DNA of 15,732 nucleotides from a virus (Duplodnaviria > Heunggongvirae > Uroviricota > Caudoviricetes), in IMG/VR virus record IMGVR_UViG_2740892234_000001, positions 1 through 15,732 of that record, one strand, 5' to 3'. Shown piece after piece: positions 6,625-8,850 of the stretch; position 1 is the stretch's first letter, and every line of letters starts with the position of its first letter. A model generated the notes under the pieces. It saw nothing but the letters and a program-made list of their open reading frames with translations. It did no database searches and had not been told where the DNA came from. The position numbers were made by a program, and so were the translations under genes.

Positions 6625-6713
6625 GTTTAGCGAGTTACATCAATAAATACAATTGGTTATGTTTTTTAGGTGGGCGAACGTGAGGCAAAGAAAACCCGGC
6701 GCTGAGGCCGGGC
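6625..6713. repeat. Conserved terminator-containing flank, copy 2 (see 2622-2713)
   Basis: Near-identical to 2622-2713. Confidence 0.8.
6685..6713 (-). terminator. Rho-independent terminator downstream of the kinase operon
   Basis: Minus strand: GCCCGGCCUCAGCGCCGGG hairpin followed by UUUUCUUUG. Confidence 0.55.
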
Positions 6714-6879
6714 TAGATTTTAAAGTATTTATCTTTTAGAGATGTAGATGTAAAACTTTTCGCCTTTGAAAATTTTTTGTCATCAGAAGGGCTTATGAAC
6801 TCATCTTTTTTGTAGGGAACCGCTAATGCTGCATCACGTCTGCGAGGCAGCTTGCTTACTTCCTCGCGCTTTTTCATGA

Positions 6880-7926
6880 TCAGTTATCCTTTAATAACCT
6901 ATACAGTTTTGTAGGGGTACATCCTGAGGATATTGTTAAGTTCGTAGCACGCCTTTTCCGCCCATCATCGTATAAACGAAAACCAGTAGTAGACGAATTT
7001 TCTGCGTCAAAAACTATAGACAGTATAGCGTCCCCAGACTTTTTTTGCCATTCGCATGTGCCGTTAGTTGGTTTCGTCATCTGTAGACGCCAGTCAAGAA
7101 CGCCATCACTTATAGCTGAGAGATCGTTTAGTACATCTAGTACGGATTGATATCTTTCATTTGGATCTACATGAATGCATTTGTTCACTATTGTTATTAA
7201 TTTTTTATGTATATGGGGAGGATACTCTTTTAATGGATAGCAGCCATTAATTATCGACTCTCTGAGTTGTTCAATCGTGCTAAATGCAGATCTTTCTCTT
7301 TCAAAATTATCATGTCCAACACACATTCTATATATGGTTAATCCTGCCTGATATATGTCATATGTGAAATTATAATCATTTGTTGATAAAGAAAAATATT
7401 CCGGTGGCACATGAAAATGATATCCAAACTCAGGCGCAGCTCTCGATTCCTCATTGACTAACTGAGATAATCCAAAGTCAGATAGCATGGCCTCATTTCT
7501 GTTTGATATCATAATGTTATTAGGTTTTATATCAAAATGCATAAGACCTTTTGAGTGTATATGATAAAGTCCACTTAAAAATTGAATGGAATACCGTATT
7601 ATCTCCCTGCTTGTAAGATTATTTTTTTTCATTAATTGGTTTAGCGAACCATTATGATAAAATGGCATGGCTATATAGATATTGCTCTCACATTGAGCAG
7701 CATACTGAACTTGCACAATATTTGGATGTGCATGTTTATAGAGAAGCCTTGCTTCATTAAAGTAGTCGTCGTGGTTAGTGTTTTCTTTTTTTTCTATTTC
7801 TTTAATCACCAAGTCATGAGCTAGGTGTCTGTCATGAGCCAGATATACTTTTGAAAAACAACCCTGTTCTTCTAGATCACTAATCCATTCGAATTCTACA
7901 TCAGCTCTTTTGTATGGAGTTAGCAT
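6880..7926 (-). CDS. stk: Eukaryotic-like (Hanks-type) Ser/Thr protein kinase, 348 aa; resembles 933W Stk exclusion kinase
   Basis: Kinase motifs read directly: beta3 Lys (LVIKEI, K42), catalytic loop HFDIKPNN (aa 130-137), DFG (aa 150-152), PPE/APE-like motif; kinase domain about aa 20-260 plus roughly 90-aa C-terminal extension; last gene of the cI-like operon. Confidence 0.8.
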   Translation of the reverse strand: MLTPYKRADVEFEWISDLEEQGCFSKVYLAHDRHLAHDLVIKEIEKKENTNHDDYFNEARLLYKHAHPNIVQVQYAAQCESNIYIAMPFYHNGSLNQLMKKNNLTSREIIRYSIQFLSGLYHIHSKGLMHFDIKPNNIMISNRNEAMLSDFGLSQLVNEESRAAPEFGYHFHVPPEYFSLSTNDYNFTYDIYQAGLTIYRMCVGHDNFERERSAFSTIEQLRESIINGCYPLKEYPPHIHKKLITIVNKCIHVDPNERYQSVLDVLNDLSAISDGVLDWRLQMTKPTNGTCEWQKKSGDAILSIVFDAENSSTTGFRLYDDGRKRRATNLTISSGCTPTKLYRLLKDN

Positions 7927-8381
7927 CCCCTTACCTCCGCAGATAGTGCAGCCAAAACAGCTTCATTTGTTTCAGTTGTAAAACCAGAATTATCGATTCC
8001 ATTTATATTGCGGTGTGACTTCAATATTTCTTTATACTCGATCTCTGTTAGGTTCAATGATGATTTCATGCCAGATTTTCTAATAGTGTAATATTTTCTT
8101 ACATCACTGCTTGAAAATGCTTCTTGAATAACAGCTTCTATATAAAGGCGGTCAATGCTAAGATTATCAGAGTTTGATTCAGTAACGCGTATGGCAGCTA
8201 ATTCAACATTATATAAATTAAGAATGTCGAGGATGTTATTTCTCACATACTTTAATTTTTCTGGTGTGTCTAAGGTCGAAGGTATTTTAATAACATCAAC
8301 ACATTTGAGTGCAGACTCATTAGTGCAATATACAACAAAAGATGTAACTTTGGGCGCCGCTCTAACACCTAGTATTCTCAT
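7920..8381 (-). CDS. Hypothetical protein (153 aa), co-operonic with kinase; stop overlaps kinase start
   Basis: ORF 7920..8381; AGGA 9 nt upstream of ATG; no family recognised. Confidence 0.55.
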   Translation of the reverse strand: MRILGVRAAPKVTSFVVYCTNESALKCVDVIKIPSTLDTPEKLKYVRNNILDILNLYNVELAAIRVTESNSDNLSIDRLYIEAVIQEAFSSSDVRKYYTIRKSGMKSSLNLTEIEYKEILKSHRNINGIDNSGFTTETNEAVLAALSAEVRGC

Positions 8382-8432
8382 TTTTTATATCCTATTTTAG
8401 AATCAGGCCGCATCTCTGCGACCATCCATCAT

Positions 8433-8447
8433 CCAAACGTCTCTTCA
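8433..8447. repeat. cI 3'-end relic core (CCAAACGTCTCTTCA) at cassette junction
   Basis: Would encode EETFG-stop on the minus strand but is out of frame with the neighbouring genes. Confidence 0.7.
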
Positions 8448-8448
8448 C

Positions 8449-8790
8449 TCACCCGAAGAAGCAGCAATCCGGGTCAGCACGCACAAGCTCAAGCGCATCA
8501 GTCAGCGAAAGTTCAGTACTGTACTGATGCCATTTCATATCCTTCCGCATCCAATAGATTTTCCATCTATCCAGAGAACGTATGTACTTGATTCTTGCTG
8601 ATGGCAGGATGTTTGTTTCACCTGGATTGCCCTGCCACACGGGGCGCTGTTCGCCGATATCTATCGTTTGGTCATTGATGCTATAAACAATATCCAGTTC
8701 ATTGCGGATATGTTCAGGCGGCCTTATGCTTTCAATGAATTGGTGAACTTCTTTTTTTACTGCTTGATATTCAAGGTCATTGAACGCCAT
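8449..8790 (-). CDS. Hypothetical protein (113 aa), first gene after the cI-like repressor
   Basis: ORF 8449..8790; AGGAGG Shine-Dalgarno (plus 8791-8800 reverse complement) upstream of ATG; no family recognised. Confidence 0.55.
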   Translation of the reverse strand: MAFNDLEYQAVKKEVHQFIESIRPPEHIRNELDIVYSINDQTIDIGEQRPVWQGNPGETNILPSARIKYIRSLDRWKIYWMRKDMKWHQYSTELSLTDALELVRADPDCCFFG

Positions 8791-8802
8791 CTATCCTCCT
8801 TA

Positions 8803-8826
8803 CCCAAACGTCTCTTCAGGCCACTG
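8803..8826. repeat. cI 3'-end relic (identical 24-mer to 3801-3824) lying after the stop of the cI-like gene
   Basis: In frame after the cI-like TGA stop, the next 16 codons read [20 protein letters not shown], a remnant of a lambda-type cI C-terminus (..[12 protein letters not shown]). Confidence 0.8.
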
Positions 8827-8850
8827 GTTACCAGCTATGTGACGATGAAG

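Follow-up and report, generated by a model that had tools for sequence, protein, structure and literature searches.

Which of the genes that share an operon with the Stk kinase of Shiga toxin (Stx) phage 933W actually belong with the kinase? Stk is co-transcribed with the cI repressor and aborts superinfection of the lysogen by phage HK97 (PMC3564112, PMC3681748, PMC8008677). The question is raised by a 15,732-nucleotide (nt) stretch of DNA from a tailed phage of the class Caudoviricetes, positions 1 to 15,732 of IMG/VR virus record IMGVR_UViG_2740892234_000001, the whole of which is called the window here. An earlier note on this DNA had described three same-strand genes behind a cI-like repressor, had likened the largest to 933W Stk with its exclusion of HK97, an exclusion that the papers just cited bear out, and had suggested that the two small upstream proteins might regulate the kinase or sense for it. 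We find that the kinase is 933W Stk itself and that it is the middle member of a three-gene cassette, ORF153-Stk-ORF54, which is conserved across bacterial phyla and usually translationally coupled. The gene directly upstream, ORF153, appears to encode a pseudo-nuclease with a RuvC-like fold, and the other small upstream gene, which encodes a DUF3024 protein, belongs to a separate module that tracks the repressor.

Locus organization and identity with phage 933W

Positions 6600 to 9600 of the window are 100% identical to phage TL-2011a and, over 3001 nt, 99.9% identical to 933W (NC_000924); the same 99.9% DNA identity extends to Phi24B and dozens of Stx phages. All genes of the region lie on the minus strand, in the order cI, DUF3024 (113 amino acids [aa]), ORF153 (153 aa), stk (348 aa), and ORF54 (54 aa), followed by the terminator tM, and both the gene order and the terminator agree with the 933W annotation. 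Stk is 100% identical in protein sequence to 933W Stk, as the cI repressor (8851-9558) is to 933W cI. Because the DNA alignment of the kinase and its neighboring open reading frames (ORFs) is 99.9 to 100% identical, with the same gene order and terminator, the relation to 933W Stk is closer than the likeness first proposed: it is the same gene, in the same immunity region. The locus, the kinase, and the exclusion phenotype are already known, and as a discovery the locus is ordinary, a textbook 933W; what is added here is the three-gene cassette and its apparently disabled RuvC-like partner.

The 113-, 153-, and 348-aa genes described earlier lie at 8449-8790, 7920-8381, and 6880-7926, with a 7-nt overlap (ATGCTAA) between the stop of the 153-aa gene and the start of the kinase gene and a terminator downstream, all as the note had it. 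The operon is larger than the three genes that it counted, since these are part of the five-gene pRM operon of 933W, and the 54-aa ORF at 6713-6877 had been missed. This ORF54 (933W ST933Wp21; PHROG 4063, 2.5e-39) starts 2 nt past the kinase stop and encodes a Lys/Arg-rich protein, the third cassette member. The intrinsic terminator, at 6714..6693 on the same strand, coincides with tM of the 933W annotation and overlaps the ORF54 stop codon; its hairpin has an 8-base-pair (bp) stem with 6 GC pairs and is followed by a T run. At the other end, cI encodes a 235-aa repressor of the 933W immunity type with a helix-turn-helix (HTH) domain and an S24 peptidase domain (Pfam HTH_3, 1e-5; Peptidase_S24, 4e-16). 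The maintenance promoter that drives the operon, pRM (pM), lies within the oR operators and was placed at 9566..9593 (minus strand) by transfer from the 933W annotation, 933W locus coordinates 3508-3535 corresponding to window 9593-9566 at 99.9% identity; that annotation has pM and the operators oR1-3 in front of cI.

The ORF153-stk-ORF54 block is found in 225 of 5426 complete Escherichia coli genomes and DUF3024 in 227, and 184 carry the whole 3-kb arrangement. In several O45:H2 and related E. coli strains (NZ_CP031916, NZ_CP101302, NZ_CP157162, and NZ_CP157156) an IS3-family element sits inside the cI-stk operon.

A three-gene cassette across bacterial phyla

We defined the cassette as an ORF153 homologue immediately upstream of an Stk-like kinase of ~340 to 355 aa, followed by a basic ORF of 50 to 66 aa; the window carries all three parts, at 7920-8381, 6880-7926, and 6713-6877. 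ORF153 has 75 close homologues, and an exhaustive profile search brought the family to 440 clusters at 50% identity. Wherever look-ups were seeded with ORF153, a kinase gene of ~340 to 355 aa always lay within a few bases of the ORF153 stop, in contexts that include Klebsiella Rac-like prophages (after a short HTH repressor), Proteus lambdoid prophages (after S24 repressors), a contig beside Wadjet JetC/JetD, Terasakiella beside an integrase, and metagenome contigs. When the scan was made with one genome per species, all 39 loci (39/39) had a kinase of 339 to 358 aa whose start falls between -8 and +10 nt relative to the ORF153 stop; these loci come from Gamma-, Beta-, and Alphaproteobacteria, Bacteroidota, Firmicutes (Clostridia), and Acidobacteria (an acidobacterial metagenome-assembled genome).

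The same linkage is seen from the side of the kinase. A kinase-seeded scan of viral contigs found ORF153 in 48 of the 49 loci that have upstream DNA, the single exception being a 5'-truncated kinase, and look-ups that began with distant kinases found an ORF153-family gene directly upstream in three of three cases (Pseudomonas aeruginosa, Elizabethkingia, and Vibrio), with restriction-modification genes, ArdA, and integrases as neighbors. The two proteins also diverge together: their pairwise distances correlate with r = 0.92 in a mirror-tree comparison, a value as high as which was reached in 0 of 2000 permutations. On the downstream side, 64 of 70 distinct loci have an ORF of 50 to 66 aa that starts at most a few nt away from the kinase stop, compared with 8% in shuffled controls. 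These small, Lys/Arg-rich proteins start with MK.. and have in common a C-terminal aromatic residue and one conserved Arg (often [ST]-R); ORF54 of the window is the enterobacterial form, which tblastn detects down to 36% identity in Proteus.

ORF153 is thus apparently an obligate partner of the kinase, to judge from these gene neighborhoods. That one of the small upstream proteins is a working partner of the kinase holds up for ORF153, which is directly upstream in every full-length locus; it does not for the 113-aa DUF3024 protein, which tracks the repressor. Another possibility is that Stk is a complete single-gene abortive-infection system in whose operon ORF153 and ORF54 are passengers. 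In PADLOC only the kinase receives a label (PD-T4-6 and mad6 models), ORF153 and ORF54 having no model there, and the published work reportedly speaks only of stk. Passenger genes, however, do not stay linked over such distance, and strict adjacency across phyla, with stop and start codons that overlap (39/39, 48/49, and 3/3 loci), together with the co-divergence of ORF153 and the kinase and the retention of the small ORF in 64 of 70 loci, makes the single-gene explanation quite improbable.

Literature searches, of incomplete coverage, turned up nothing that describes ORF153 as a partner, the loss of its active site, or the trailing small ORF; searches on DUF3024, on RuvC-like proteins with kinases and anti-phage activity, and on Stk, HK97, and gp41 gave nothing on the partners. 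NCBIfam added nothing for DUF3024, ORF153, or ORF54.

ORF153 and the RuvC fold

ORF153 (933W ST933Wp23) has, in its structure model, the full RuvC/RNase H-like fold, at a sequence identity to RuvC of only 13 to 15%. Its score against Pfam RuvC (PF02075), 14.2 bits, is below the gathering threshold of 22.2, and hhalign aligns the two with E = 0.036. A profile search of the PDB sequences with ORF153 did not find RuvC, and comparison of ORF153, alone or as a profile, with the sequences of solved structures gave chance-level matches only. The hhalign register places ILGVR7 of ORF153 opposite ILGID7 of E. coli RuvC and AAIR65 opposite FAIE66, in agreement with the strand and helix positions of the ORF153 model. 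By this register the four RuvC carboxylates, Asp7, Glu66, Asp138, and Asp141, are not retained as a set: ORF153 has R7 for Asp7 and R/K65 for Glu66, and the C-terminal pair is represented only by E140.

Residue conservation was assessed in 68 non-identical homologues from several phyla and in 126 further cluster representatives. Position 7 is Arg in all 68 homologues (68/68) and in 125/126 representatives, and position 65 is Arg or Lys throughout (68/68 and 126/126). Also strongly conserved are E68 (68/68 and 124/126), E82 and E87 (68/68 and 125/126 each), R47 (68/68 and 126/126), and R78 (67/68 and 125/126); position 140 is Glu in 67 and Asp in 1 of the 68 homologues and Glu or Asp in 124/126 representatives. 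The first carboxylate of RNase H-fold nucleases is essential, and since it is replaced here by a conserved Arg, we infer that ORF153 is a pseudo-nuclease in which the scaffold has been kept for binding rather than cleavage. ORF153 does not turn out to be a known phage regulatory gene either: the catalytic residues contradict the name that databases give it, "RuvC-like Holliday junction resolvase," which is probably wrong on function.

The roles could instead be reversed, with ORF153 as the effector, an active structure-specific nuclease with a remodeled site that is switched on by Stk phosphorylation, and the kinase as sensor and transducer. The full RuvC fold, the invariant E68, E82, E87, and E140, and the resolvase name in the databases would fit such a nuclease, but an invariant Arg stands in for the essential beta1 Asp and Arg or Lys for the beta4 Glu, the protein falls below the Pfam RuvC threshold, and published accounts credit the kinase activity and broad phosphorylation (PMC3681748). 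We regard this arrangement as distinctly unlikely and retain the pseudo-nuclease interpretation.

Riley et al. identified the ORF153 protein (P3, NP_049483) and the DUF3024 protein (P2, NP_049484) on two-dimensional gels of Phi24B lysogens, in which their expression is lysogen restricted (PMC3342100). Since both proteins were detected there, both small ORFs are real, expressed genes. The same study reports an ORF153 transcript level ~1e5-fold that of cI and a DUF3024 transcript level of ~10-fold (PMC3342100). A scan for consensus promoters upstream of ORF153 found none. The ORF153 leader, between DUF3024 and ORF153, contains a hairpin, GGTCGCA..TGCGGCC, at window 8395-8412 (minus strand); in another locus (L044) it recurs with altered bases in the stem (GGCTGC..GCAGCC). 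The leader may hold an element for RNA processing or stability, or else an unrecognized promoter.

The Stk kinase

Pfam Pkinase covers residues 21 to 260 of Stk (2.2e-46), and the kinase motifs are all kept where they had been read earlier: the VIK Lys42, the alphaC Glu58, the catalytic loop H130-F-D132-I-K134-P-N-N137, D150-F-G, and, at the APE position, P-P-E 174-176. The K42 and D132 positions proposed for kinase-dead mutants are the right ones, and the kinase fold and catalytic residues are intact. The best relatives among solved structures, eukaryotic Ser/Thr kinases, are Nek7, PKR, and CaMKI (~1e-21), with the catalytic motifs aligned. The catalytic loop belongs to the non-RD class (HFD) and, by its DxKPxN motif, to the Ser/Thr type, although tyrosine phosphorylation has been described for Stk (PMC3681748).

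The C-terminal extension of ~90 aa noted earlier is present as a domain at residues ~262 to 348. Its length is conserved throughout the family, two of its Trp residues are invariant in the family, and it is modeled as a meander of four to five strands with an added helix (predicted local distance difference test score, 82). A comparison of the model with known structures found no informative match; the domain is a candidate docking or sensing surface.

The stk gene also contains an A8-G-A4 homopolymer tract (window 7773-7800, codons 43 to 51). In five IMG/VR loci (L052, L053, L056, L110, and L125) stk is frameshifted by A7 or A3 at this tract, which could reflect either slippage-prone inactivation or homopolymer sequencing error.

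Stk is little active in uninfected lysogens, and exclusion has been ascribed to its kinase activity and to broad phosphorylation on infection (PMC3681748). Such silence could also follow from toxin-antitoxin logic, in which Stk is the toxin, ORF54 and/or ORF153 are labile antitoxins, and any phage that shuts off expression from host or prophage releases the kinase with no specific recognition step. ORF54 has features that would suit an antitoxin, being small and basic, probably disordered, and tightly coupled to the kinase gene before it, and AbiE-type toxin-antitoxin systems occur in two of the neighborhoods. Escape of HK97 from exclusion reportedly maps to a single phage gene, however, which argues for specific sensing, and we consider the toxin-antitoxin explanation unlikely.

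DUF3024 and the repressor 3' end

The 113-aa protein (933W ST933Wp24, 8449-8790) matches Pfam DUF3024 over its full length (108.9 bits against a threshold of 24.9; 2e-31) and the PADLOC candidate PDC-S43 (5e-42). Its comparison with the sequences of solved structures gave chance-level matches only. A match of residues 10 to 72 to AvrPto, the kinase-binding effector of Pseudomonas syringae, has E = 0.07 and is probably due to chance; the likeness is curious in that a kinase lies two genes downstream.

The DNA around DUF3024 points to the repressor. After the 933W cI stop there is a relic of the 3' end of a lambda-type cI gene (..QWPEETFG*) at 8804..8850 on the minus strand, recognizable in the sequence and when aligned with the end of lambda cI at window 3780-3830. 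A 15-nt sequence from this 3' end (..PEETFG*), TGAAGAGACGTTTGG, forms a perfect direct repeat that brackets DUF3024, with copies at 8804-8818, inside the relic, and 8433-8447, the downstream copy (minus strand) marking the right edge of the DUF3024 cassette. The relic also precedes ORF153 in phages without DUF3024 (L044, L055, and L010). The lambda-type cI 3' end thus turns up as a relic after unrelated repressors and ahead of different cargo cassettes, and it seems to serve as a common recombination joint at which the cargo behind cI is swapped; the site just after the cI stop codon would then be a plug-in position at which DUF3024 and the kinase module are exchanged via the conserved 3' end.

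In a scan of viral contigs seeded with DUF3024, 65 loci had enough downstream DNA; 25 of these have ORF153 or the kinase, and 40 have neither. The gene upstream of DUF3024 nearly always encodes an S24-type repressor, with at least nine kinds represented, 933W cI and lambda cI among them, and downstream there are at least seven different genes, among them ORF153, a 177-aa protein, a 162-aa protein, and ParA-like ATPases. Conversely, all viral kinase cassettes whose kinase is <=97% identical are without DUF3024, and DUF3024 is absent from 38 of the 39 genome loci of ORF153 and the kinase. The exception is Proteus penneri (L139), where a 38%-identical DUF3024 homologue (4555-4893) lies between cI and ORF153, which either was captured there independently or hints at a functional link of a looser kind. 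Because 40 of 65 loci lack the kinase, a repressor lies upstream, and diverged kinase cassettes lack DUF3024, the gene tracks the 3' end of the repressor rather than the kinase and is a separate module.

The suggestion that DUF3024 regulates or senses for the kinase can draw on its membership of the operon in 933W-type phages, where ORF153 is the next gene, and on the P. penneri homologue. Against it, the protein is missing from every diverged kinase cassette except that one, as counted above for the genome and viral loci, and unrelated cargo often stands downstream of it; the repressor is always before DUF3024, while the next gene varies. The flanking cI-end repeats and the stand-alone PADLOC candidate PDC-S43 point the same way, and a role of DUF3024 as regulator or sensor of Stk is in our view very improbable.

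A proposed mechanism

The explanation that we prefer, with moderate confidence, is that two modules lie behind cI and that ORF153 is a sensing or regulatory subunit of Stk, with ORF54 as a modulator. The cargo of the lysogeny (pRM) operon in the 933W-type immunity region would thus consist of two independent modules. The first, DUF3024, would be a unit bracketed by duplicated cI 3' ends that moves along with repressors and is not specifically tied to the kinase; the second would comprise ORF153 with its predicted RuvC fold, Stk, translationally coupled to it, and ORF54, the small basic protein. Stk is the abortive-infection effector of the published work, silent in the lysogen and switched on by HK97 superinfection, whereupon many proteins are phosphorylated and the infection aborts. 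The ORF153 pseudo-nuclease would recognize a phage recombination product or a recombination protein, for example an Erf-type annealing protein, and license kinase activation, and ORF54 would be a bound modulator of the kinase, either an inhibitor or an adaptor.

The genetics of the system would fit this proposal. HK97 escape from Stk is said to map to gene 41, and gp41 alone is said to activate Stk. From the gene order in the HK97 record we take gene 41 to encode an Erf-type single-strand annealing protein. 933W itself encodes Bet/Exo, and a homologue of HK97 Erf was found in neither 933W nor TL-2011a. As a hypothesis, a RuvC-shaped protein that does not cut, and that reads recombination intermediates or an annealing protein, would suit a gp41/Erf trigger.

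Several points weigh against the proposal. The mapping of the catalytic residues is carried by a weak alignment (hhalign E = 0.036) and by secondary-structure register, not by superposition; the invariant E68 could replace Glu66; and the acidic set of E68, E82, E87, and E140 could form a different active site. The equation of the HK97 trigger with gp41 and of gp41 with Erf is a putative one that draws on gene order in the HK97 record. The Friedman laboratory is said to have observed kinase activity and HK97 exclusion with stk constructs, and if stk alone sufficed, the partners would not be strictly required. The neighborhoods, too, are not uniformly defense islands: outside prophages the neighbors include restriction-modification systems, AbiE, OLD/AriA-like ATPases, and Wadjet, and a survey with Pfam and PADLOC of 114 neighboring proteins from 30 genomes found defense, mobile-element, and housekeeping genes mixed, which gives weak support for a defense-island context.

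A more general form of the proposal makes Stk the catalytic subunit of an immune module that has three components and is widespread. In it, a pseudo-nuclease derived from RuvC would read phage recombination activity, as junction-like DNA or an Erf-type annealing protein, and gate the kinase, with the basic protein as inhibitor or adaptor. We hold this only tentatively, at somewhat less than an even chance. If it is true, the module, whose clusters at 50% identity number at least 440, would be an unrecognized defense architecture, and it would explain how 933W, with Bet and no Erf homologue, tells HK97 from itself. How Stk is kept silent in the lysogen and how HK97 switches it on has reportedly been a question since 2011; ORF153 is a concrete candidate for the sensor, because it is conserved across phyla and has a predicted junction-binding fold without the catalytic Asp.

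Other features of the window

The window contains five runs of exactly 10 N (869-878, 1015-1024, 5293-5302, 10785-10794, and 15400-15409) and is a scaffold of contigs, not one continuous phage; the stretch 5303-10784, which carries the operon, is free of N runs. There are two immunity regions, with a lambda-type cI at 3798-4511 and the 933W-type cI at 8851-9558, and the lambda cII 3' end occurs twice (5165-5224 and 10795-10859). The lambda-type cI is followed not by rexAB but by overlapping ORFs of 162 aa and 200 aa (3313-3801 and 2714-3316, minus strand), for which searches of Pfam and PADLOC gave no significant match. The 162-aa protein also follows DUF3024 in other phages, and the two ORFs may be another uncharacterized cargo of the "rex slot." Farther on, an intein that contains a LAGLIDADG homing-endonuclease domain interrupts a 797-aa replicative DnaB-type helicase (12101-14494, plus strand): Pfam DnaB_C matches in two stretches, with LAGLIDADG_3 at residues 405 to 454. 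TL-2011a annotates this helicase merely as hypothetical.

Comparison with known systems

Stk is one of several Hanks-type kinases that act in abortive infection, along with PD-T4-6 of E. coli and Stk2 of Staphylococcus. The last two are described as single genes, unlike the cassette here, with neither a RuvC-fold partner nor a small trailing ORF. The best match of Stk to the PADLOC PD-T4-6 models (1e-37) spans only residues 20 to 273, the generic kinase domain, and that model set is unspecific; the PD-T4-6 label also catches housekeeping PASTA kinases (PMC11514479). Defense-annotation tools call such kinases generic single-gene "PD-T4-6," and the partner goes under the name of a Holliday junction resolvase, a probable misnomer as to function. 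Membership in MADS (mad6 kinase) was rejected, since Stk scores 122 bits against the NCBIfam equivalog cut-off of 460 and the operon contains no other MADS genes. The 113-aa protein, which matches PDC-S43 and Pfam DUF3024 in full, appears here as a repressor-linked cassette.

ORF153 differs from RuvC (PF02075) in its low identity and subthreshold score, in the invariant Arg at the position of Asp7 and the Arg/Lys at that of Glu66, and also in its setting: it is expressed in the lysogen with the kinase, not, as the RuvC resolvase is, within a recombination module. The RuvC domain of Cas12k, an inactivated RuvC, offers a comparison case. In its logic the operon resembles lambda RexAB, likewise an exclusion cargo that shares its pRM transcript with cI, is made in the lysogen, and can abort infection by other phages (PMC3564112), whereas the proteins and their chemistry are unrelated, RexAB being a sensor plus a membrane channel and the present system a kinase cassette. 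With Stk of 933W (Tyler and Friedman 2004; Friedman et al. 2011) there is no difference in sequence: the gene, its place after cI, the flanking ORFs, and tM are all the same, and what the present comparison adds is that stk lies within a conserved three-gene cassette, with the neighboring DUF3024 gene outside it.

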